A stretch of DNA of 32,000 nt. It comes from Candidatus Thorarchaeota archaeon (GTDB lineage: Archaea; Asgardarchaeota; Thorarchaeia; Thorarchaeales; Thorarchaeaceae). Position 1 is the stretch's first letter; every line of letters starts with the position of its first letter. The notes beneath the pieces are model-generated. The model had not been told where the DNA came from. It did not search any database and saw only the letters and a program-made list of their open reading frames with translations. Shown one piece after another: positions 3,001 to 25,610 of the stretch. The stretch spans positions 90,001-122,000 of the forward strand of contig SHMX01000003.1 in the NCBI GenBank assembly GCA_008080745.1. The letters run 5' to 3'. The translations under genes and the position numbers were made by a program.

Positions 3001-3317
3001 TCCTTTTTGATATAGCGAGTTGCACCTCTATTCAGAGCTTCGATTGCCACGTCCTCTCTTGACTTGCCTGTAAATAGTATAAAGGGAATCTCAGAATCAT
3101 GTTTACGTACAAAATCAAGTACATCTAGCCCATTATGTTCTGGCATCTCAAAATCAGAAATTATTGCATCGAATTCATCCATAGAAAACAATTGAAGTGC
3201 TTCCGAACTAGAAGAAACTGTGATTATATCCATACCTGTGAGTTTAGCTAAGAATTTCTCTGCAATTATACATGTTGATTCATCATCATCGATGAATAAT
3301 ACCTTTGCAGAGTTCAT
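9..3317 (-). CDS. Hybrid sensor histidine kinase: REC - 6x PAS/PAC - HisKA - HATPase
   Basis: REC motifs (FIDDD, ISDFEMP with phospho-acceptor Asp, FTGK, YIKK). Six PAS/PAC units ending in D/N-I/V/T-T motifs. H-box HQMKHDV, N-box VFQNIISNAVEHG, G2 GGLGL; the G1 box is atypical (NDGEEIP). SD GGTGGTGA at 3322-3329 on the - strand. Confidence 0.95.
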   Translation of the reverse strand: MNSAKVLFIDDDESTCIIAEKFLAKLTGMDIITVSSSSEALQLFSMDEFDAIISDFEMPEHNGLDVLDFVRKHDSEIPFILFTGKSREDVAIEALNRGATRYIKKDADPQSMYSELAHSIQSSILLTRIKRDLEETRLLNRVLVESMQDMVFVLDEQERYVEFIGSPTSRPFLSIDTFLGKRIQEIMPRRISEVYIQRAERIRNTGTTEKMEYWLEIDGEILWYRAYLSLHEDGKSIIVLASNITTEREAIQSRRMIEDLANSLIHSSPQGILVIRLSPPKILFSNELASNMLGYSQEQMHQLTSKSLSELLDKSEHLKLARNYDEYLEGFKEPLKKHYKIITPSGETKWLEAYLNPIYYDGQKSALVVFRDRTEEFHAEEMIKQRTAYFKALFESAPLPYQSLDVDGLIITVNDAWQQLMGYDREEVIGRNFSEFLVEIHRELFKENFNLFKDTGKADDVRYSMVRKDGKIRNIAAYGRISYNKDGTYEMSHCIIHDVTSDLDGLATQIQDQYFRIIADSTYDWESWIGCDGKLIWVNEAVENHTGYSTDECMDMEQYPLPIIHPHDRSRIHQILTEASKGDSQGNDIPFRIINKSGEERWMALSFNPMRNEFGELLGFRTSIRDTTEREKLSSELSERKAFFKALFNSIPDYVQVWEREDDGTIRLIAVNSSLYEASNGKVEYLIGMSLGEVYKERPQYIEKIREAMHSDDTIRFDTHYQMITQDHSLHLIWQFKKVSDDILLMIATDITDHVKAEEALNKSQERLSIALKATGIGYFELWSDLSHAYISKQWRELHGLTRETISKNPRKLWEWFLSVVHPDDQERFIQLLQLQYPIDVVNLIYRIHMPDGNWRWIHGFGSVQEVDTDSEKIRIIGSARDVTAEMEAKIALEAQRDELSKFTHQMKHDVTNILHNMMGLISLLEDDYNQEHLSRMKMMVEQMEILLKQSIQLADAGLIIGEREHCNLQDVLQSIIDTTIPSSIEIKMSELPLVECDSAKIVQVFQNIISNAVEHGQPKEIRIRTEQREDRVVIIISNDGEEIPKGIREKLFYSQVSTKEHGGLGLRIVKRIIEAHGWKINLDQSRTISFLIHIPKRDVVK

Positions 3318-3452
3318 AATGTCACCACCAAAAGGGTTCTTGGGAAGAACTCTATTGGTAAGGTTCCCAGGACTATAGTAAATATAATACAGAATGTAAT
3401 TTATTTCTGTTTATTGAGTAGTTTAGGAATTAATGGTCTATCAGCGGAACAT

Positions 3453-3464
3453 ATTTGTACAAAT
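3453..3464. promoter_or_regulatory. Perfect 12-bp palindrome ATTTGTACAAAT in a divergent intergenic region
   Basis: Seen in sequence between the divergent kinase and SNAP-like genes. A binding-site role is inference. Confidence 0.3.
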
Positions 3465-3525
3465 CATTTCAAATAGGCAACTGACCTCAGGCTTGCAGAG
3501 GGAACTATAACGGGTCGGAATAGCA

Positions 3526-4257
3526 ATGGAAGACGAATGTAGCCAATGGGAAAAACTTGCGGGTGAATTCGCAGAGAAGGAGAAATACTATCAAGCAGCA
3601 AACCAATATAGAAACTCTGCTGCATGCCACCTCGATAAGGTTCTGGAGATGACTAGAAAGGCAGCTGAGTATTATCATATGCATGCCGAAGCTAGTGCTG
3701 AAGCAGATGATCATAAATCTGCTGCAAGGTCATACTTTGAGGCAGCTAATCAATATCGGCAAGTTAGTGACTTTGCTACTGCTCTGACCCTCTTTGAAAA
3801 TGCAGCTTCTGAAGCCCTCGATGAAGGAATGACAGAAACCGCCGCATCTTCCTATCTTTGGGCAGCCTTTGCTTGCCACAAGCTGGGAAATACCGATTAC
3901 TTTCTAACTTGTGCTGAAAATATGGCCAATCTATATGACAAAGCAGCTGAGTCAGTTCTCGAAGAAGGAAAGGCAGAGAGAGCTGTCATCAACCTCTCAT
4001 TATCAGCCATGGGTTTTGCTACCATTGAAAAGGTTGATGAAGCAAAGAAACGCATTGAAAAGGCAAAACGAGTTATCGATAAGACTAGTTGGCCATGGCT
4101 AAAGACGCTTCTCTCGTTCAGTGACGACTTGGCAGAGGGACGCCTGATTGAAGCTGAAGATCAATGGAAGAGTTTCAAAGAAGAAGAAACCATCCAAGAG
4201 GTTATGAAGGCCTGCCATAGTATTATCGAGGACCGACAGAGAAGAGGGAAGAAGTGA
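3526..4257 (+). CDS. Alpha-SNAP-like / TPR alpha-solenoid protein
   Basis: Repeated AAxxYxxAA helical-hairpin pattern (AANQYRNSAAC, AARSYFEAANQY, AASSYLWAAF), typical of SNAP/TPR-like solenoids. Confidence 0.75.
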   Translation: MEDECSQWEKLAGEFAEKEKYYQAANQYRNSAACHLDKVLEMTRKAAEYYHMHAEASAEADDHKSAARSYFEAANQYRQVSDFATALTLFENAASEALDEGMTETAASSYLWAAFACHKLGNTDYFLTCAENMANLYDKAAESVLEEGKAERAVINLSLSAMGFATIEKVDEAKKRIEKAKRVIDKTSWPWLKTLLSFSDDLAEGRLIEAEDQWKSFKEEETIQEVMKACHSIIEDRQRRGKK

Positions 4258-18800: not shown

Positions 18801-20468
18801 GTGGCAGCAGAGCAATACCTGATTGTGGGAGTGCTGATAGTTGGAGCTGCTTTGGCAAAAGTAGCTGAGAAATACCGATTGCCCTACCCCATACCCCTAA
18901 TTATAGCAGGAATAGTGCTTGGACAGGCATTACCAAATGAGGGTATACCAGAAGCGTTGGGGCTCGAATTCATTGCACAACTGACTCTGGCAACAGTTTT
19001 GTTCTATGCTGGACTGACTATGAATCTCAAAGAATTACGATTATCTCTACCGGTGGTAGCACTATTAGCATCGGTAGGTGTTCTTCTCACATCAATAATT
19101 GCGGGCGGCGCAATATACCTAGCATTCTCTGGAATTGGTCTAACAGCATTTCTCATCGGAGCTATTCTATCACCTACTGATCCTGCAGCCCTTTTTTCGG
19201 TTCTTGAGTCGGGAGGGGTTAGAGTAAAGCGAAAAATATACTCTATTCTCGAAGGAGAAGCAGTTTTCAATGATGCTACATCAGTCATTTTGGTCATCAC
19301 AGTTTTCGAACCATTGATAGCAGTAAATCTGATAGGAGACCCCAGTCTAGCTCAGCCATGGTTCATTATTTTGGCTCAATTTATTGGTAGTTTAATCTTT
19401 GGAGTAATTATTGCGTTCGTAATAGCTCGTATCATTGGAGATGCAATACTCCGAGCAGGTGACCAAACTAATATCACTATTCTGACTGCAACAACACCTA
19501 TACTCGCATATGGCGTCGGAGAGATGTTGACATTTCTTGGATTTCATCCTGGTGCAATGGCTGCAGTCTTTACAGGAATATTCATGGCTAATGCCAAATC
19601 GGTCAATCTTGATGTTCTACCACAGCAATCCATGAGAAACACCACAAAAAATGTTTCATTTGCCTTTGAAATAGTAGTATTCATATTAATGGGTTATACG
19701 CTCAATCTTGAATTTGTCACTGGAGTATTTGTAGGAACTCAAGTGCCAGTATTATTGGTCGGTGCTGTAGTTGCATTCCTTGTGATATTCGTCGCAAGAC
19801 CTGTATCGGTGTTCTTAATTACAGCATCGGATAGGACTATGGATTGGAAAGATCGATTCTTTATCAGCTGGGCAGGGGTCAAAGGTGTAGCAAGTGCTGC
19901 TTTGGCAGCTATTGCGGTTTCTGTATTGGTTCATTCAATTCCTGAAGGTACTCCACAGTTGATTGTTGATCAGGTTCATATTGCAGCGGATACGATCACC
20001 GGAATCGTCTTCATTGTCCTGATGATAAGTTTGGTAGTCCAAGGAGTAACTGCCCCCATTTTCGCTAAACGCCTTGGTTTGGAAGAAGAAATGGATGTCT
20101 TTGACGAATTATCTGCAAGGCGTAATGCTACCCGTCATGCTCTACTTCGACTGGTTGACGAGTACACCGAAGGAAAGATAGATCCAGAAATTTATCGTAG
20201 ATTAAAATCTGAACTTGAAGAAGAAATATATCAATTGGAAGATGAATTGAGAAAGATGGTTCAAGAGAAACGTGCCAGACTTCTGGAGATAGCTATGCGT
20301 GAGGAGATTTGTAAGAGCAAGCTCTCCTACTACGAGGAAGAATATGAAAAGGGTAAAATCCCAGAGGTCGTCTATGATGATAGAAAGGATGAAATCGAGG
20401 CTGAAATCAATGAGCTCTCAGTTATGAGAAGACATTGTGCTGAGGGAAAAACCGAACCTCAAGATTAG
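18801..20468 (+). CDS. nhaP: CPA1 (NhaP-type) cation/H+ antiporter with acidic coiled-coil C-terminal tail
   Basis: LFYAGL, LSPTDPAAL, LEGEAVFNDA, VARP and WAGVKGV motifs, about 13 TM segments. SD GAGGTG before a GTG start. Confidence 0.9.
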   Translation: MAAEQYLIVGVLIVGAALAKVAEKYRLPYPIPLIIAGIVLGQALPNEGIPEALGLEFIAQLTLATVLFYAGLTMNLKELRLSLPVVALLASVGVLLTSIIAGGAIYLAFSGIGLTAFLIGAILSPTDPAALFSVLESGGVRVKRKIYSILEGEAVFNDATSVILVITVFEPLIAVNLIGDPSLAQPWFIILAQFIGSLIFGVIIAFVIARIIGDAILRAGDQTNITILTATTPILAYGVGEMLTFLGFHPGAMAAVFTGIFMANAKSVNLDVLPQQSMRNTTKNVSFAFEIVVFILMGYTLNLEFVTGVFVGTQVPVLLVGAVVAFLVIFVARPVSVFLITASDRTMDWKDRFFISWAGVKGVASAALAAIAVSVLVHSIPEGTPQLIVDQVHIAADTITGIVFIVLMISLVVQGVTAPIFAKRLGLEEEMDVFDELSARRNATRHALLRLVDEYTEGKIDPEIYRRLKSELEEEIYQLEDELRKMVQEKRARLLEIAMREEICKSKLSYYEEEYEKGKIPEVVYDDRKDEIEAEINELSVMRRHCAEGKTEPQD

Positions 20469-21121
20469 TATGAAGCCTTCTTGTAAATATCAGGTATCCG
20501 GATGCCAGTTTTCCCATTAAAGACGTCTCGTAGAAGTTCAAAATGCTCATCAAGGTCTTTCAGGAGTTTCTCTAAAGCATTTGGCTCTATGTTTGGCTCA
20601 GCAGTCCAGATTGTAAGATAATTACTCACAACACCGAGTTCAACTCCACCTTCCTCAAGATCACGGAAAATGGTGATTTTAACAAGGAACTCAGCCTCAA
20701 ACATGTCCAATACTTCATGCACACTGATAATAATAAGGTCAAGAAAACCAATTAGGTCTTCAAGTTCTGGAGAATTCTCTATACTTCCTCTAAGTGATTC
20801 CGTAAAAGTTTGAATTGTTGAAGCCTTTTGCTTCAAGGTCTCGAACATCCGCATTAGTTTTGAGAATTCTTTTATTGAAGATTCGAGAGCAGGAACCAAT
20901 TTATCGAATAGATTTACAAGAAGTTTGCCACGTGCATTCTCGCGGATATTTTGATATCCATCAAGTTTACCTAGTGGCCCGTCGAGATGTTCAATCTGAA
21001 CTAGAGTGTTTGTAACAGCTTGTATAGACTTGACAGAGCTACGTTGGATTTTAGACCAACGTTCAACAAATGAATCGATGCCTTCACGCAAATCTTCAAG
21101 GATTTCTAACTCTCTGGCCAA
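20465..21121 (-). CDS. Putative CINP / C1orf109-like helical protein
   Basis: C-terminal HEVLDMFEAEFLVKITIFRDL...YLTIWTAEPNIE resembles the recalled human CINP HKLLEMYRKELLLKRTVAKEL...YLSMWLHQPYVE. SD GGGTGGAGA at 21129-21137, TTG start. Confidence 0.7.
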   Translation of the reverse strand: MARELEILEDLREGIDSFVERWSKIQRSSVKSIQAVTNTLVQIEHLDGPLGKLDGYQNIRENARGKLLVNLFDKLVPALESSIKEFSKLMRMFETLKQKASTIQTFTESLRGSIENSPELEDLIGFLDLIIISVHEVLDMFEAEFLVKITIFRDLEEGGVELGVVSNYLTIWTAEPNIEPNALEKLLKDLDEHFELLRDVFNGKTGIRIPDIYKKASY

Positions 21122-21212
21122 GGTATATTCTCCACCCTTACCAATGTATTACAGCATATAACTCATTCTGCGTTGGCATTACAGACATGGAAATTATGTT
21201 GAAAGTACCATA

Positions 21213-23687
21213 CTAGGAGATTCCAGAAGTATCGACATCGCCTTTGACTCGTCCAAATACAGCTCGGAGTACATCATAGCCCCCTGTTGCTGCACCAACT
21301 ACATCACCTGTAAATAGAGACAGCAAGACATTAGCAGCTTTGGCAGGTGTGCTGGTCTTCTTTCTAAGATCTTTTACGCGAGTTGAAAAGCTATGCCATA
21401 ATTCACGGGTTGTACCTCGTTCAAGCACACCTTCTTCCTCTAGTGCTTTGATGAGATTTGAACCAACTTGTCCCTCAGTCGCAAAGCCACATACCAGCTC
21501 CAGAGCCTCTCTCGCTTCCGGATCGTCTGAAGACCGTTCCATTAAATCAACAAAAGCTCTTGTGGTGGATTCCACGGTGTCAAAAAGATCAAGTAGTTTA
21601 ATCTTCTGAATCGCAGATAAATCGGATTGAAGTGTAAGATCAATTGTTCGTTCAATATCACCAAAGTCCACAAATGAAAGGTCTCGGCCCTTCAAACTAT
21701 GTTTCATAGAATCAGTAACACTGGTTATGAGCCCAACGAACTTGTTTCCACGAAGGACTTTCAATATATTCTGAACAGTTCGTTTTTCTTTATCAGATAG
21801 TATCGCTTCATCAGATTCAAGATGGATTAAGAAATCTCTGAAATTCGGTTCGAACATTTCTAGTTCCATCTTCAATCGGTCAACACTCTTGCGGCTTTTT
21901 GAGTCGTAGGATAAGTCATCCTGTTGATGCACATATATTAAAGTTGAATATTCAATTGCTTGCTTCCAGACTGGTTCTAGTGCATTATCAAGAATACCTT
22001 TAGCAAGCACAGAGTCAATTTCCTGTTCATAGAACTTCTGTAGTTCATCATCTAGTTCTTTTTTCTTTGCTAGACGTCCTCGTTCCAGAAGAGCAACATG
22101 ATTAAGCAGGAGGAGAATATCAAACTCAGTAGGTTCGGAGCCATTTTCAGCGATAATATTGAGACCCTCAAAGAACCTTGAAATCTGTTCATGCGAAAGA
22201 TTACTCTCAAATGCATATCCTCCCAATGGAGTTAATTGTAGCTCTCCGTTCTTCTTTTCAATGAGAGGTTGTTTCATTTTCAACATCTGTTTGAGAACCC
22301 TAGAGGTTGACCCTTTTTTATAGAATAATCCAAGAGCTTTTGATACCTCCTTTCTTTCATCATCCTTACTCAATAATCCGAGACCAATATTGCCTAACAG
22401 AATCTTCGAAAGTTGACTATTATTCAAAAAACGAGTTGGTAGCTTTGGTGAGCTGTAGACACGCTCTAATTCACTAACATCCGTGATACTCTTAGTGAAG
22501 ACGGTACAGTCTCCAGCCCTTCCTTTTCCTCTACGCATTCGTACAGCACGAGCCATCATTGATTGTCTAAATATTTCATCTATGCCAGGCGCACCCATCA
22601 CAACGTGAGAAACGGGAGTATTAACACCGTAAGCTAGAGCCTCTGTACCAAATAGAAATCGTATGTATTTTCTTCTGAATGCCCATTCAATGAACCAACG
22701 TTGAGCCTCGTCCATCTGACCGTGATAGCATCCAATACCCTGCTCAATCTGAGGATAATTAGGATATTCCAATTCTTTCAGAACACTTGATACTTTTTCT
22801 AATCGCTCTCGGATGATGTGTTCTATATCATAGGATACAGCCTCACCAAGTTCAGGACCATTCTCCTCGACGAAGTTTGTAATTTGATCTATCGAGTTAA
22901 TGTAGACAAGAGTACGCGATCCGTCATCAGCTAAATCAAGTAGATGTTCAGTGAATTTCGTTTCTTTTTCCTTTGTTGATTTATAATTTACTAGACGTAT
23001 ATCTGGAGGATCGTACTCCTTGTCATCAATAATCATTTTCACATCAAATGCTTTAGCTAGACGGTCAGGTTCATCAAATTGTGCTGATAGAACAAGCAAC
23101 CGTGGAGAGCTTGCAACCTGAGCCTTGACAAATTTGATAATCTCGAAAAGCATTGGTCCTCTAATAGGATCATGAATAATGGAATGTGTATCATCAGCAA
23201 CCAATACGCGAAGGTTTCTTGTTAGGAGCCAATCACGGGTTTGTTTTATTCGAATCATCTCAAGCATAGCATCGGGAGTAGCAACAATCACATTGGGAGT
23301 GAAGCCCTTTGATATCTGCAGAACAGATTGGTTGTCGCGTATTTCACCCACTACAACCATTGGACGTAAGAACCAACCAAAGAACTGACTGATAGTTGCA
23401 GATGTGTCGCGTGCAGATGCATGAAATGGCGCTAAAATAATGGCTAATTCATTTGCCTCACTATCAGAAGATTCTTCCTTACGCTTGCATATTGCCTTGA
23501 ATATCTCATTAGCTATCAACAAACTTCCAGCAAAGCTTTTTCCTGTTCGAGACATGGACACAATACCAAAATCATCGGTAGTCGTGTATAAGCCAGCTTT
23601 GGCTGCAACTCGTTGAACTTCATTCAATTTTTTTATTCCTAAAGCTTCGGATATTTTTGCAAGTGATGGCTCAAGAACGTCAATCAT
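21213..23687 (-). CDS. Hel308/Ski2-like SF2 helicase homolog with degenerate catalytic motifs
   Basis: Q motif (LNEVQ), motif I SRTGKS, VATPD, motif II DDTH, motif III SAQ, GIGCYHGQM...IEWAFRR, TEALAYGVNTP and motif VI SMMARAVR. Confidence 0.88.
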   Translation of the reverse strand: MIDVLEPSLAKISEALGIKKLNEVQRVAAKAGLYTTTDDFGIVSMSRTGKSFAGSLLIANEIFKAICKRKEESSDSEANELAIILAPFHASARDTSATISQFFGWFLRPMVVVGEIRDNQSVLQISKGFTPNVIVATPDAMLEMIRIKQTRDWLLTRNLRVLVADDTHSIIHDPIRGPMLFEIIKFVKAQVASSPRLLVLSAQFDEPDRLAKAFDVKMIIDDKEYDPPDIRLVNYKSTKEKETKFTEHLLDLADDGSRTLVYINSIDQITNFVEENGPELGEAVSYDIEHIIRERLEKVSSVLKELEYPNYPQIEQGIGCYHGQMDEAQRWFIEWAFRRKYIRFLFGTEALAYGVNTPVSHVVMGAPGIDEIFRQSMMARAVRMRRGKGRAGDCTVFTKSITDVSELERVYSSPKLPTRFLNNSQLSKILLGNIGLGLLSKDDERKEVSKALGLFYKKGSTSRVLKQMLKMKQPLIEKKNGELQLTPLGGYAFESNLSHEQISRFFEGLNIIAENGSEPTEFDILLLLNHVALLERGRLAKKKELDDELQKFYEQEIDSVLAKGILDNALEPVWKQAIEYSTLIYVHQQDDLSYDSKSRKSVDRLKMELEMFEPNFRDFLIHLESDEAILSDKEKRTVQNILKVLRGNKFVGLITSVTDSMKHSLKGRDLSFVDFGDIERTIDLTLQSDLSAIQKIKLLDLFDTVESTTRAFVDLMERSSDDPEAREALELVCGFATEGQVGSNLIKALEEEGVLERGTTRELWHSFSTRVKDLRKKTSTPAKAANVLLSLFTGDVVGAATGGYDVLRAVFGRVKGDVDTSGIS

Positions 23688-23743
23688 AAACGTGCTCTCC
23701 TATACTAGATGAAAAATCAAATAGAAATAAAGATTGCCCGAAA

Positions 23744-24283
23744 TCACGAGATGCCCAAACGTAGAAGATCGGACCTAGTAATAATCCCACTTAATCGCCC
23801 CTGACTAAGTATAAGAACAGCCTGATACATATCGAACAACGGAAGAATAGAATCGATAGGGGTATGCTCATCAACTCTTGGAGGACCACTGGATTCGATA
23901 GCTGCGCCCACTGATATTTTTGTTAGATCATGGCGAAGATTTCTAATGATATCACGCTCAGTTATCATTCCAACAATTCTACCACTACGTACTACAGGTA
24001 ATTGAGAATAACCATATTTTTGCATATCTTCAATTGCAGAAGCTACACTATTCCGTGCATCCATCGTCTTAGGATCGCGTGTCATAATATCCTCACAACG
24101 AATCTCTCTAGCCCTAGAAACAATATCCACTATTTTATTCACTATTGATAGTTTAGGGTCTAAAGTCCCTCTCTCCATTCTAGCAATATACGGTTGAGTA
24201 ACTCCAACTGCTTCAGCCAAATCCAGCTGGGTAAGGCCCGCCACTTCTCGTAAATGTTTAAGTTTCTCTTTTGAAATGAGCAT
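23744..24283 (-). CDS. XRE-family HTH plus tandem CBS domain transcription regulator (COG3620-like)
   Basis: LREVAGLTQLDLAEAVGVTQPYIARMERGTLDPKLS, followed by two CBS repeats (YSQLPVV...GMITERDI; GIITRSDLL). Confidence 0.93.
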   Translation of the reverse strand: MLISKEKLKHLREVAGLTQLDLAEAVGVTQPYIARMERGTLDPKLSIVNKIVDIVSRAREIRCEDIMTRDPKTMDARNSVASAIEDMQKYGYSQLPVVRSGRIVGMITERDIIRNLRHDLTKISVGAAIESSGPPRVDEHTPIDSILPLFDMYQAVLILSQGRLSGIITRSDLLRLGIS

Positions 24284-24306
24284 AATTTATCACTTAATGA
24301 CTGTAG

Positions 24307-24343
24307 GTAATATTATTTTATGTAATATAACCAATAGTAATAT
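24307..24343. repeat. Three GTAATAT direct repeats with exact 15-bp period in the HTH-CBS / mat divergent promoter
   Basis: Copies at 24307-24313, 24322-24328 and 24337-24343. Confidence 0.7.
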
Positions 24344-24410
24344 GCTAACAAAAGGTATTTAACGTTATAGACGCGGCACAAAAGGAAAGCAGTAGACTAA
24401 GGTGACTGTT

Positions 24411-25610
24411 ATGTATTTGAAAGTTACACGAGGAGACGGAAGACCCGTCGCAAAAAGAGAAGTCGAAATAGTAGAACGAAAAGGAAAGGGGCATCCAGAC
24501 ACATTATGTGACAAGGCTGCGGAAGAATTGTCAGTTCGTCTTAGTGAGTTTTACCTTGAAAAGTTTGGTAGAGTCATGCACCATAATGTAGACAAGGTAC
24601 TACTAGTTGGTGGACAGTCTAATGCTCAATTTGGAGGTGGAGACGTCATTGAACCAATCTACCTACTGCTCAGTGGAAGAGCAGTTGATGTTGTCGACAG
24701 AGATTATGAAAGACAAGTTCCTGTAGGAAAGTTCGCTGTTGAGCATACAAGACAATGGTTGAGTGAAGATTTACCCCATCTTGATGTTAATTCAGACCTA
24801 ATTGTTGATTACAAGATACGCGCAGGAAGTACAGATCTTGTGGGTAACTTTGATCAGGACATTGAAATACCCAAAGCAAACGATACTAGTTTTGGTGTCG
24901 CATATGGGCCCTACTCAGCAACTGAGAAAGTTGTTCTGGAATCAGAACTCTTGTTGAACTCAGATGCCATGAAGAAGAAATATCCCCAGATTGGTGAAGA
25001 CATCAAAGTCATGGGTACACGAGTCGGAAAGGATCTTCACATTCAGGTAGCAGCCGCTATCATTTCTACTGAAACAAAAGATGCTGATGAATATGCCAGT
25101 ATCATGCAAGCTATTAATGATGAGGTTTCTGACCTTGCTGTCAAATTAACAGACTTGAACATTAATGTTGCTGTCAACACTGCAGATGTAGCTGCTGAAG
25201 GACTCTATTATCTCACTGTAACTGGAACATCTGCAGAACACGGAGATGACGGACAGGTTGGTAGAGGAAATCGAGCTAATGGGCTAATCACACCCTATAG
25301 GCCAATGACTCTTGAGGCAGCAGCAGGCAAGAATCCTGTATCTCATGTTGGTAAGACCTACAATGTTGCAGCTAGAGAGATTGTTGAACGTGTTGTAAAA
25401 GAACATCCGGACATCCAACAAGTTTACTGCTATCTCGTTAGCCAAATTGGAGCTCCTATCACTGAACCACAAGCAGTTAATGTCGAACTCTATGGTGAAT
25501 GTGATATTGAAGAGATTAAGAAGTCAGTAGAGAGTATTTCAGAAGAAATTATTTCAAAGCTCCCCAAAGTTTGGGAGGGCTTCGTCAAGAGAGAATATCA
25601 GCTCTGGTAA
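24411..25610 (+). CDS. mat: S-adenosylmethionine synthetase, archaeal type
   Basis: EIVERKGKGHPDTLCD, HHNVDK, ANDTSFGV, GEDIKVMG, GTSAEHGDDGQVGRGNR and GKNPVSHVGK. SD GGTGA at 24401-24405 favours ATG 24411. Confidence 0.97.
   Translation: MYLKVTRGDGRPVAKREVEIVERKGKGHPDTLCDKAAEELSVRLSEFYLEKFGRVMHHNVDKVLLVGGQSNAQFGGGDVIEPIYLLLSGRAVDVVDRDYERQVPVGKFAVEHTRQWLSEDLPHLDVNSDLIVDYKIRAGSTDLVGNFDQDIEIPKANDTSFGVAYGPYSATEKVVLESELLLNSDAMKKKYPQIGEDIKVMGTRVGKDLHIQVAAAIISTETKDADEYASIMQAINDEVSDLAVKLTDLNINVAVNTADVAAEGLYYLTVTGTSAEHGDDGQVGRGNRANGLITPYRPMTLEAAAGKNPVSHVGKTYNVAAREIVERVVKEHPDIQQVYCYLVSQIGAPITEPQAVNVELYGECDIEEIKKSVESISEEIISKLPKVWEGFVKREYQLW

Follow-up and report, generated by a model that had tools for sequence, protein, structure and literature searches.

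Known Ski2-like proteins and comparison with the thorarchaeal protein

To our knowledge, the Ski2-like pseudo-helicases described so far are for the most part the inactive second cassettes found in eukaryotic Brr2, Slh1 and ASCC3. The C-terminal cassette of Brr2 binds ATP and ADP tightly without hydrolysis and has a scaffolding or regulatory role (PMC8220420). For archaea, a survey of Ski2-like proteins gives only the groups Hel308, ASH-Ski2 and Brr2-Ski2 (PMC10946056). Hel308 separates strands with a β-hairpin located between motifs V and VI (PMC5473145, PMC2636818). In reverse gyrase, which belongs to another SF2 subgroup and has a DEAD-box-like core fused to a topoisomerase, the helicase-like module reads DDVD in motif II and is an ATP-hydrolysing nucleotide switch (PMC4117796).

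The gene described here lies in a window of 32,000 nucleotides from a Candidatus Thorarchaeota archaeon (contig SHMX01000003.1, positions 90,001 to 122,000). The encoded helicase-like protein has the same RecA1-RecA2-winged helix-ratchet architecture as Hel308/Hjm (PDB 2p6r, 2va8, 2zj2/2zj8; NF040935, NF002654), with which it also has in common the Q motif, the GK[ST] of motif I, the Asp and His of motif II and the R-G following it, the S-A of motif III, motif V, and the Gln and Arg of motif VI. It differs from Hel308 in a DDxH instead of the DExH motif, an Arg in the P-loop, the absence of the motif III Thr, and a motif VI which has no glycines and contains inserted residues. In addition, the β-hairpin and the HhH domain 5 are absent, about 170 extra residues are present at the C-terminus, and the genome encodes a canonical Hel308 as well.

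Like the C-terminal cassette of Brr2 (and Slh1/ASCC3), the protein consists of four domains of the Ski2-like type and combines non-canonical catalytic motifs with a nucleotide pocket that is kept. Unlike that cassette, it stands alone as a single cassette of 824 amino acids lacking an active partner cassette, and it is archaeal, restricted to one family and of independent origin, its branch in the tree giving no sister group. Nucleotide binding by the thorarchaeal protein is predicted from conserved binding residues. The Sec63 Pfam domain gave no match in the protein. With the reverse gyrase module it has in common an Asp in place of the catalytic Glu of motif II (DDVD as opposed to DDxH); reverse gyrase has neither winged-helix nor ratchet domain, and there is no specific sequence relationship between the two.

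Gene, domain layout and predicted fold

The gene lies on the reverse strand. Its reading frame is open over 824 codons, as a sequence-only reading of the window had stated, and a GGAG ribosome-binding site is located 8 nt upstream of the ATG. Two runs, both of DNA and from a single marine-sediment study, contain the stretch; this study is possibly the source of the assembly, so that the runs give no independent support for it. They were the only sequencing runs listed for the stretch, with no RNA run and hence no expression record among them. The Pfam families DEAD (PF00270; residues 23-205, 3.8e-12, 46.7 bits against a cut-off of 26) and Helicase_C (PF00271; residues 315-383, 2.6e-6, 28.1 bits against a cut-off of 23.5) were both detected, and with these two RecA-like domains the protein belongs to the Ski2-like/DExH group of superfamily 2. 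The features are compiled in Table 1.

Table 1. Coordinates in the window of the helicase-like gene, its domains and motifs, and the adjoining genes.
Feature	Residues	Window position	Strand	Basis or remark
Whole gene, Hel308/Ski2-like protein, 824 aa		21213..23687	(-)	stop codon 21213-21215
RecA1 domain; Q motif (Q25), motifs I, Ia, Ib, II, III	1-215	23043..23687	(-)	Pfam DEAD, alignments, hhalign, motif census
RecA2 domain; motifs IV, IVa, V, VI	216-400	22488..23042	(-)	Pfam Helicase_C, alignments, hhalign
Winged-helix domain, basic, pI 9.7	~401-495	22203..22487	(-)	AF2 and VIA alignment to Hel308 2p6r and Brr2, hhalign, charge
Ratchet-like helical domain	~496-655	21723..22202	(-)	structural alignment to Hel308, Hjm and Brr2 domain 4
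Acidic helical extension, family-specific	656-778	21354..21722	(-)	unalignable to canonical Hel308 past the ratchet
C-terminal tail, GxxxGxxxG stretch, V-D-T-S-G end	779-824	21216..21353	(-)	conservation, hydropathy
Motif I / P-loop, S-M-S-R-T-G-K-S	44-51	23535..23558	(-)	motif census and canonical comparison
Motif II, D-D-T-H	165-168	23184..23195	(-)	catalytic Glu replaced by Asp
Motif III, S-A-Q	201-203	23079..23087	(-)	motif census
Site of missing β-hairpin, 5-residue loop between motif V strand and motif VI helix	G365-I369	22578..22595	(-)	
Remodelled motif VI	Q375-R385	22533..22565	(-)	Gln and two Arg kept; both Gly replaced by Ala and Val
Upstream neighbour, HTH (XRE-type) + CBS-pair regulator, co-oriented		23744..24283	(-)	Pfam; 56 nt before the helicase-like gene
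Downstream neighbour, CINP-like protein (CINPL), co-oriented		20465..21121	(-)	91 nt after the helicase-like gene

The full-length AF2 model (pLDDT 78.8, pTM 0.79) gave Hjm (2zj8), Hel308 (2va8), the PolQ helicase domain and Brr2 as top Foldseek matches with E-values of about 1e-20. VIA alignments to Hel308/Hjm extend over 560-590 residues with Z-scores of 23-25 and cover the model up to residue ~660 (for Hel308 2p6r, residues 2-661 of the model, 569 aligned, Z 23.9), those to the Brr2 cassettes reach a Z of ~25, and hhalign against Hel308 gives a probability of 99.9 for residues 4-562. Together with the Pfam matches, this bears out the sequence-only reading that the protein is of Hel308/Ski2 type with non-canonical motifs. 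In the predicted structure, the winged-helix and ratchet domains complete a ring with the RecA pair. The RecA1 and RecA2 domains of the model superpose with the cores of DEAD-box proteins in the closed state (Z 29, rmsd 2.9 Å, 346 residues) and resemble clamps closed on RNA and an ATP analogue, namely eIF4A1 (9avr, Z 29) and eIF4AIII in the exon junction complex EJC (Z 27.5). The closed conformation is a feature of the predicted model, and its likeness to the DEAD-box clamps is only suggestive of a clamp function.

ATP-site motifs

The motif census comprised 36 full-length relatives of the helicase-like protein, in which SRTGK[ST] and DDxH occur without exception. In motif I, the residues S46, R47, T48, G49, K50 and F52 are found in all 35 members having the column, and the invariant R47 occupies a position at which Hel308s have Gly, Ala or Ser. 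D165, D166 and H168 of motif II are present in 36/36, compared with DE[VI]H in the canonical paralogues. Motif III retains S201 in every relative, while position 203 is hypervariable (V14, E10, Q4, K4, R2, H1) as opposed to the Thr of all 11 canonical Hel308-like sequences. Motif Ib reads TPDA (residues 137-140) and motif IVa YHGQM as opposed to the canonical HHAGL; the nucleic-acid-contacting positions P87, T137, R146 and T348 of motifs Ia, Ib and V are kept.

The register of motif VI is ambiguous, with MAFFT, hhalign and HMMER giving three different placements. D370, E371, Q375, S376, R380, R385, G387 and G392 are present in 36/36 and R383 is Arg in 29/36. In the hhalign register, Q375 corresponds to the canonical Gln and R380 and R385 to the two Arg, S376 and R383-M384 being insertions; the number of extra residues is 3 by hhalign and 4 by the spacing count from the alignment. 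The SMMARAVR noticed in the sequence-only reading does occur, as residues 376-383, at nucleotides 22539-22562 and thus one base off the approximate position given (22540-22563). The Gln-to-Ser replacement claimed there holds in the MAFFT register and disappears under hhalign, in which the invariant Q375 takes the place of the Gln. DDTH was located exactly, and SAQ, SRTGKS and TPDA are present as described.

Altogether, between 34 and 36 of the 36 relatives carry Q25, S46-R47-T48-G49-K50-[ST]51, D165, D166, H168, D370, E371, Q375, R380 and R385, and in a family whose members are 41-54% identical overall, the motifs of the ATP site rank with the best-conserved blocks. Judged by this invariance, the nucleotide pocket appears to be under the tightest constraint in the protein. 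To speak of a "coordinated loss of catalytic residues", as had been proposed, is therefore an overstatement, because Q25, G49-K50-S/T51, D165 and R380/R385 remain invariant.

Unwinding elements and the C-terminal module

At the site where Hel308 carries its β-hairpin, the alignment leaves a loop of 5 residues as opposed to 10-16 in canonical Hel308-like sequences, hhalign opens gaps of 5+2+4 columns (11 total), and the AF2 model contains no strand pair. The ratchet is the least conserved region of the protein, with a mean column entropy of 1.96 compared with 1.16-1.26 for the RecA domains. The Pfam families HHH_5 and Helicase_dom4_arc were not detected in the protein, whereas the genome's own Hel308 has both, and beyond the ratchet the C-terminus can be aligned to canonical Hel308 neither by MAFFT nor by hhalign. 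HhH domain 5 is replaced by the acidic helical extension and a conserved Gly-zipper tail. The deleted hairpin, the replaced HhH domain and the poorly conserved ratchet are stronger signs of lost unwinding than those noted in the sequence-only reading, which had missed them.

The acidic extension has a net charge of -7, and 12 of 81 columns are invariant in residues 656-736. The tail (residues 779-824) has the lowest entropy of all regions (1.03) and contains a Gly-rich hydrophobic stretch at residues 787-811 as well as the most hydrophobic segment of the protein (Kyte-Doolittle 19-residue maximum of 1.24 at 784-802). A transmembrane tail was considered and rejected, as this maximum is below the usual 1.6. 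A degenerate pattern resembling a PIP box, centred on an invariant Phe of the tail, was also considered, and we make no claim for it. Searches with the C-terminal region gave no usable feature match in the ESM Atlas (residues 656-824; all structural rows with TM <0.4), only noise in Pfam at E-values up to 10 for the last 175 and 60 residues (GPP34 at 0.043), and no further copy of the tail in the window's own genome. The region alone (residues 650-824) was modelled by AF2 with a pLDDT of 48.3 and a pTM of 0.39, too poor for a fold search, and the tail has a pLDDT <50 in the full-length model.

Family, selection and phylogeny

About 36 relatives have uninterrupted frames of 813-846 amino acids and identical motif deviations, and because the deviations are fixed in 36/36 full-length relatives, they are more than chance. 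Compared with an 85%-identical orthologue, pN is 0.097 and pS is saturated at 0.82; residues 656-824 show the lowest pN (0.037, pS saturated). Divergence is slightly faster than that of canonical Hel308 between the same genome pairs (47-54% as opposed to 55-62% identity). The non-canonical motifs are fixed and under purifying selection, and do not represent decay. The sequence-only reading had asked whether the substitutions are fixed across relatives, which they are, with pN far below pS, and had reserved decay or an assembly error for the case of relatives with canonical motifs, a case which does not arise among the 36 full-length members.

The family is sharply delimited, scores dropping from 909 to 101 bits in a search of 1.84 billion representative proteins; the search was unrestricted in length, and among the best matches there were no fused relatives of greater length. 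The best sequence matches in the PDB are Slh1, ASCC3 and Brr2. Against the NCBIfam equivalogs of Hel308, with cut-offs ranging from 887 to 1216 bits, the protein scores 36-56 bits (NF002654: 56 bits, cut-off 887; NF040935: 35.7 bits, cut-off 1200). It is consequently not an archaeal Hel308/Hjm orthologue: an equivalog-level score, canonical motifs II, III and VI, the hairpin and the HhH domain are all absent. In a tree including Hel308, the SWIM paralogue clade and a eukaryotic Brr2-like clade, the family is attached through a stem 2.4 substitutions per site long, which joins a row of long branches, and no sister group is claimed. A canonical Hel308, the presence of which had been suggested as a check, is encoded elsewhere in the same genome beside MCM and reaches 817.6 bits on NF002654, so the role of a repair helicase is already covered. 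No description of the helicase-like family was found in the literature searched on Asgard and Thorarchaeota Hel308, Ski2-like proteins and pseudo-helicases.

Locus, distribution and inheritance

The HTH-CBS regulator adjoins the gene in all loci that include the upstream flank, and CINPL follows directly 3' in every locus that includes the downstream flank. CINPL shows a weak match to the Pfam family CA109-like and has been published as an Asgard homologue of CINP (PMC12962969). It is present in 81/86 genomes of the thorarchaeal family, including about 70 that lack the helicase-like gene, which makes the adjacency weak evidence of a partnership. The helicase-like gene itself occurs in 11/86 genomes of this one family, within few genera, in addition to a deletion relic in one genome (G317), and the slot between HTH-CBS and CINPL also receives other insertions. 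The tree of the gene is congruent with that of the flanking MAT and CINPL genes, which together with the relic indicates vertical descent with repeated losses. The gene is accessory and dispensable; the ancestor of the carriers already had it at this locus, and its vertical inheritance was accompanied by repeated loss.

Possible function and alternative explanations

As the ATP pocket is kept while the strand-prying parts are lost, the protein is probably an ATP-gated clamp or adaptor. A highly derived, lineage-specific Hel308 paralogue that acts in this nucleotide-gated manner and not as a motor is the explanation we favour, by a modest degree of confidence, and of the roles proposed in the sequence-only reading, that of a clamp or scaffold is also the most plausible. 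We infer the following mechanism from the conserved residues and the losses described above. On binding of ATP, RecA1 and RecA2 would close around single-stranded or branched nucleic acid, and the Asp in place of Glu, the lost coupling Thr of motif III and the remodelled motif VI would make hydrolysis slow and uncoupled. In this state the protein may persist as a nucleotide-gated clamp or switch, in the manner of the helicase module of reverse gyrase and the C-terminal cassette of Brr2, while the acidic helical extension and the Gly-zipper tail would recruit or regulate a partner. The earlier proposal of an "ATPase-dead or strongly attenuated" protein fits in its second half, attenuated and nucleotide-gated; a dead ATPase does not follow, because the same Asp-for-Glu exchange exists in reverse gyrase.

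That exchange is compatible with a real ATPase, and by analogy the protein could still be a turnover enzyme. Such a working ATPase, translocase or strand-annealing enzyme, in which DDxH, the P-loop Arg and the Arg-rich motif VI form an alternative competent site, is possible, if somewhat doubtful. It agrees with the invariance of all nucleotide-contacting residues, with the Gln and both Arg of motif VI being kept under hhalign, with the nucleic-acid contacts P87, T137, R146 and T348, with a constraint similar to that on canonical Hel308, and with ATP hydrolysis by reverse gyrase through DDVD (PMC4117796), owing to which Asp-for-Glu alone is no proof of a dead ATPase. However, the hairpin needed by Hel308 for strand separation is missing, the position of the coupling Thr in motif III varies freely, conservation is lowest in the ratchet and the HhH domain is gone, points that argue against processive unwinding and not against ATP turnover. 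A scaffold independent of nucleotide, whose pocket is conserved for structural reasons only and could be occluded by R47 and the motif VI insertions, is decidedly unlikely. The P-loop of pseudo-enzymes decays once nucleotide binding has been lost. In this family, Gly-Lys-Ser/Thr, the Mg-binding Asp and the adenine-reading Gln do not vary in any member despite the 41-54% overall identity.

The patchy distribution, in 11/86 genomes, and the slot that takes other insertions might also be explained by an anti-virus defence helicase, for example similar to Hachiman HamB, or by cargo of a mobile element, and PADLOC gave weak HamB matches (best 1.8e-11, partial, ~165 residues). These matches do not, however, exceed the similarity expected of any SF2 helicase, HTH-CBS and CINPL flank the gene in every locus with no adjoining HamA-like (DUF1837) or nuclease gene, the chromosomal position between housekeeping-type genes is constant, and the congruence of the gene's tree with the MAT+CINPL tree and the G317 relic speak for vertical descent with losses, so that we regard this explanation as very improbable. 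The probability of a recently decaying pseudogene or an assembly error is negligible in view of the intact frames of 813-846 amino acids in ~36 relatives, the shared deviations and the low pN.

With regard to the favoured clamp or adaptor, a Hel308 ring has apparently been converted once, acquiring a rewired and conserved ATP pocket and a new C-terminal module and losing the unwinding pin. The fixed position beside CINPL provides a concrete partner hypothesis. In its furthest form, this hypothesis makes the protein a stand-alone pseudo-helicase gated by ATP, which Thorarchaeota derived from Hel308 separately from eukaryotes and whose tail docks onto CINPL or replication-fork factors; we consider this unlikely. 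If it is true, the inactive Brr2/Slh1 cassette would have a free-living counterpart, and the docking would tie an Asgard homologue of a eukaryotic cofactor of genome maintenance and ribosome biogenesis to a nucleic-acid clamp. The importance of the gene is limited by its being dispensable and confined to few genera of one family. It may nevertheless offer a simple single-chain system for studying the conversion of a helicase into a nucleotide-gated clamp or adaptor, and the family adds to the expansion of Hel308 paralogues in Asgard archaea.

Family boundary and fold

The helicase-like gene is a single unbroken ORF with a GGAG 8 nt upstream of its ATG, in a 3.16 Mb genome that is 98% complete; the nearest records to the window are Asgard MAGs labelled Promethearchaeota or Thorarchaeota, and its source is marine sediment. 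In its product, the Pfam domains DEAD (residues 23-205) and Helicase_C (315-383) both exceed their gathering scores. A word-indexed search retrieved 40 relatives, mostly of 813-846 aa, one of them 85% identical and the others 41-57%. The family shows a sharp boundary: when 1.84 billion representative proteins were searched exhaustively with a profile, full-length members scored at least 909 bits and the next proteins, ordinary Hel308-like proteins of about 700 aa, ~100 bits.

The AF2 model (pLDDT 78.8, pTM 0.79) is confident as far as about residue 735, and its quality is poor from residue 737 on. Foldseek ranked Hjm (2zj8), Hel308 (2va8 and 2p6r), the PolQ helicase domain and Brr2 highest (E about 1e-20), and VIA aligned 560-590 residues, within model residues 1-660, to Hel308 (Z 23-25) and to both Brr2 cassettes (Z about 25). 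According to these matches, Hel308 domains 1-4 are present; domain 5 (HhH) is absent, and ~170 family-specific residues take its place. For the modelled RecA pair by itself, the best superposition is with closed DEAD-box proteins bound to RNA and an ATP analogue (eIF4A1 9avr: Z 29, rmsd 2.9 Å, 346 residues).

Coordinates of the features discussed (window numbering unless another sequence is named)
Feature	Position	Strand	Remark
Window	C3:90001-122000		
Helicase-like gene	21213-23687	-	824 codons
Motif I, S-R-T-G-K-S			inside residues 44-51
Motif Ib, TPDA			residues 137-140
Motif II, DDTH	23184-23195		residues 165-168
Motif III, SAQ			residues 201-203
Motif VI, SMMARAVR			residues 376-383
CINPL	20465-21121	-	
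T-rich gap	23688-23743		56 nt
HTH-CBS regulator	23744-24283	-	
ORF in the slot, genome G353	L057 (C25) 3173-3844	-	223 aa
Deletion relic, genome G317	L055 (G317:C9:57500-62500) about 3704-3937		
Partial copy, genome G326	L008/L017 (C341) 2038-2467		residues 676-824
MCM gene and canonical hel308	L002:51-3384 (G000:C2)		window's genome
Second Hel308-like paralogue	L003:1468-3675 (G000:C4:148379-150583)		735 aa
Further frame	G000:C2:74859-76043		739 aa

Motif changes and constraint

The motifs of 36 full-length members were compared with canonical Hel308-like sequences by MAFFT and by profile-profile alignment, which matched canonical Hel308 over residues 4-562 with a probability of 99.9. The five altered motifs listed by the sequence-only reading were all recovered as described (see table). 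Its wider claim, a coordinated loss of catalytic residues, stands only in part: a fixed Asp166 occupies the place of the catalytic Glu, and the motif VI glycines are replaced by fixed Ala379 and Val382, with inserted extra residues, but Gln25 of the Q-motif, Gly49-Lys50-Ser/Thr51 of the P-loop and Asp165 and His168 of motif II are kept and invariant, as are Ser201 of motif III, T/S348 and G354 of motif V and, around motif VI, D370-E371, Q375, R380, R385 and G392. After motif II, R176 is invariant and G177 is found in 34 of the 36 members. Also fixed are Arg47 within the P-loop, at a position that is Gly, Ala or Ser in Hel308s, and YHGQM in place of HHAGL. The substitutions are common to all 36 relatives except at the motif III Thr position, which is freed from constraint in the family (V14, E10, Q4, K4, R2, H1) and is Thr in 11/11 canonical sequences.

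The stretch linking the motif V strand to the motif VI helix has 5 residues in the family, compared with 10-16 in canonical sequences. In Ski2-like helicases the strand-separating β-hairpin emerges between these motifs (PMC5473145; PMC2636818), and the segment holding it is deleted here. The register of motif VI is ambiguous: MAFFT places Ser376 opposite the canonical Gln; hhalign places the invariant Gln375 there, matches R380 and R385 to both arginines and takes Ser376 and R383-M384 to be inserted; the HMMER alignment to Slh1 has yet another register. QxxGRxGR is restored under none of the three, and in the best-supported register the Gln and Arg side chains are available.

Mean column entropy is lowest in the tail (1.03), followed by the C-terminal extension (1.10-1.24), RecA2 (1.16), RecA1 (1.26), the winged helix (1.58) and the ratchet (1.96). 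The gapless alignment with the 85%-identical orthologue (L004) revealed constraint, with pN 0.097 against a saturated pS of 0.82; pN reaches its minimum of 0.037 in the C-terminal 169 residues and its maximum of 0.146 in the winged helix and ratchet. In the same genome pairs canonical Hel308 is 55-62% identical and the helicase-like protein 47-54%, which means that the latter is constrained almost as strongly as a real helicase.

Proposed function

Conservation of the protein peaks in the ATP pocket and in the new module at the C-terminus, and the parts that turn hydrolysis into translocation and strand separation (motif III Thr, hairpin, ratchet and HhH brake) are lost or relaxed. Reverse gyrase carries the same Asp-for-Glu exchange in motif II (DDVD), and its helicase module hydrolyses ATP and acts as a nucleotide-regulated affinity switch (PMC4117796), while Brr2's inactive C-terminal cassette illustrates that a Ski2-like unit can be used as a nucleotide-bound scaffold (PMC8220420). 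Taken together, this pattern and these precedents favour, with modest confidence, a nucleotide-gated clamp or adaptor, in which ATP hydrolysis would be slow and uncoupled, and a partner would be engaged through the acidic extension and the Gly-zipper tail.

The main rival, a still competent ATPase with an unorthodox site, shares the conserved pocket and is a possible but less likely reading. A scaffold working free of nucleotide is improbable given the invariant pocket residues, and a defence helicase is very improbable, the similarity to HamB being only generic. The selection results exclude recent decay or assembly error, and a pseudogene has practically no probability.

Distribution and history of the locus

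Across 400 genomes of the phylum, the helicase-like family is confined to the family to which the window belongs; there, the specific C-terminus alone, used as query, recovered the same 11 of 86 genomes (genera g1, g5 and g9, and 3/28 in g11), together with a remnant in G317 (g3). Each of the 20 loci whose flanks could be used, among them that of the most divergent member (L073, 41% identity), has one order: a divergently oriented SAM synthetase, then co-oriented HTH-CBS, helicase-like gene and CINPL, the last two separated by 77-118 nt with a single exception of 422 nt. CINPL occurs in 81/86 genomes of the family (23/23 high-quality ones), and in loci without the helicase-like gene it follows HTH-CBS directly after 90-290 bp. 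An obligate three-gene unit is weakened, because CINPL and HTH-CBS do without the helicase-like gene, which is accessory.

The slot between HTH-CBS and CINPL appears variable: in G353 it is occupied by an unrelated ORF on the opposite strand, whose product has a C-terminal membrane anchor, and at locus L072 about 2.8 kb lie between HTH-CBS and the helicase-like gene. G317 has a deletion relic in this slot, in which the first ~26 codons run into the last ~52 in another frame, with the join at a short V/I-Q-K microhomology within an A-rich run, the tail frame having no start codon. The helicase-like tree and that of the flanking MAT and CINPL recover the same well-supported clades, with helicase-like branches 4-5x longer. 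These data indicate that the gene arose once at this locus, long ago, descended vertically and was cleanly lost repeatedly.

CINPL surpasses its neighbours in conservation by a wide margin (97% identity with the sister genome and 70-84% within the family). In G326 an additional, partial copy of the C-terminal ~150 residues, whose frame is broken, lies just upstream of the complete gene. Metagenomes contain stand-alone tail ORFs (P0050, 80 aa; P0055, 104 aa; P0076, 59 aa) and a chimera (P0052) of a carbamoyl-phosphate-synthase-like N-terminus and the tail; all of these may be either relics or functional mini-proteins.

Classification and other helicases of the genome

Elsewhere the genome encodes a canonical 748-aa Hel308, as the earlier reading had proposed to check (NF002654, 817.6 bits; DEVH, SAT, standard motif VI, dom4 and HhH Pfam domains). 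It begins 20 nt past a co-oriented MCM gene (P-loop and lid domains), with which it forms a replication/repair gene pair. The second paralogue has canonical-looking motifs (GSGKT, DEIQ, SAT, standard motif VI) and, following its winged-helix region, a large insertion whose Cys/His pattern is SWIM-like. The genome contains several additional SF2 ORFs, and the 739-aa frame shows 23% identity.

Unlike Hel308 orthologues, the helicase-like protein fails the equivalog scores and lacks the canonical motifs, hairpin and HhH domain, and was rejected as an orthologue; a Brr2-type cassette was rejected since the protein consists of one cassette only and lacks a Sec63 domain. In the RecA-core tree a stem of 2.4 substitutions per site leads to the family, and the tree does not fix its placement with respect to Hel308, the SWIM-paralogue clade or eukaryotic Brr2/Slh1-like proteins, so that "Hel308-derived" applies to architecture only. 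A survey of archaeal Ski2-like proteins recognised only Hel308, ASH-Ski2 and Brr2-Ski2 groups (PMC10946056), and the papers describing Asgard CINP homologues mention no helicase. We class the protein as a putative Ski2-like pseudo- or attenuated helicase, whose significance is limited by its narrow, dispensable distribution and by a function predicted from sequence and model.

No intrinsic-terminator-like hairpins were found in window 20300-24500. The T-rich gap that separates HTH-CBS from the helicase-like gene, with a TATA-like TTTATTT ~45 nt before the ATG, could be a terminator, a promoter, or both.
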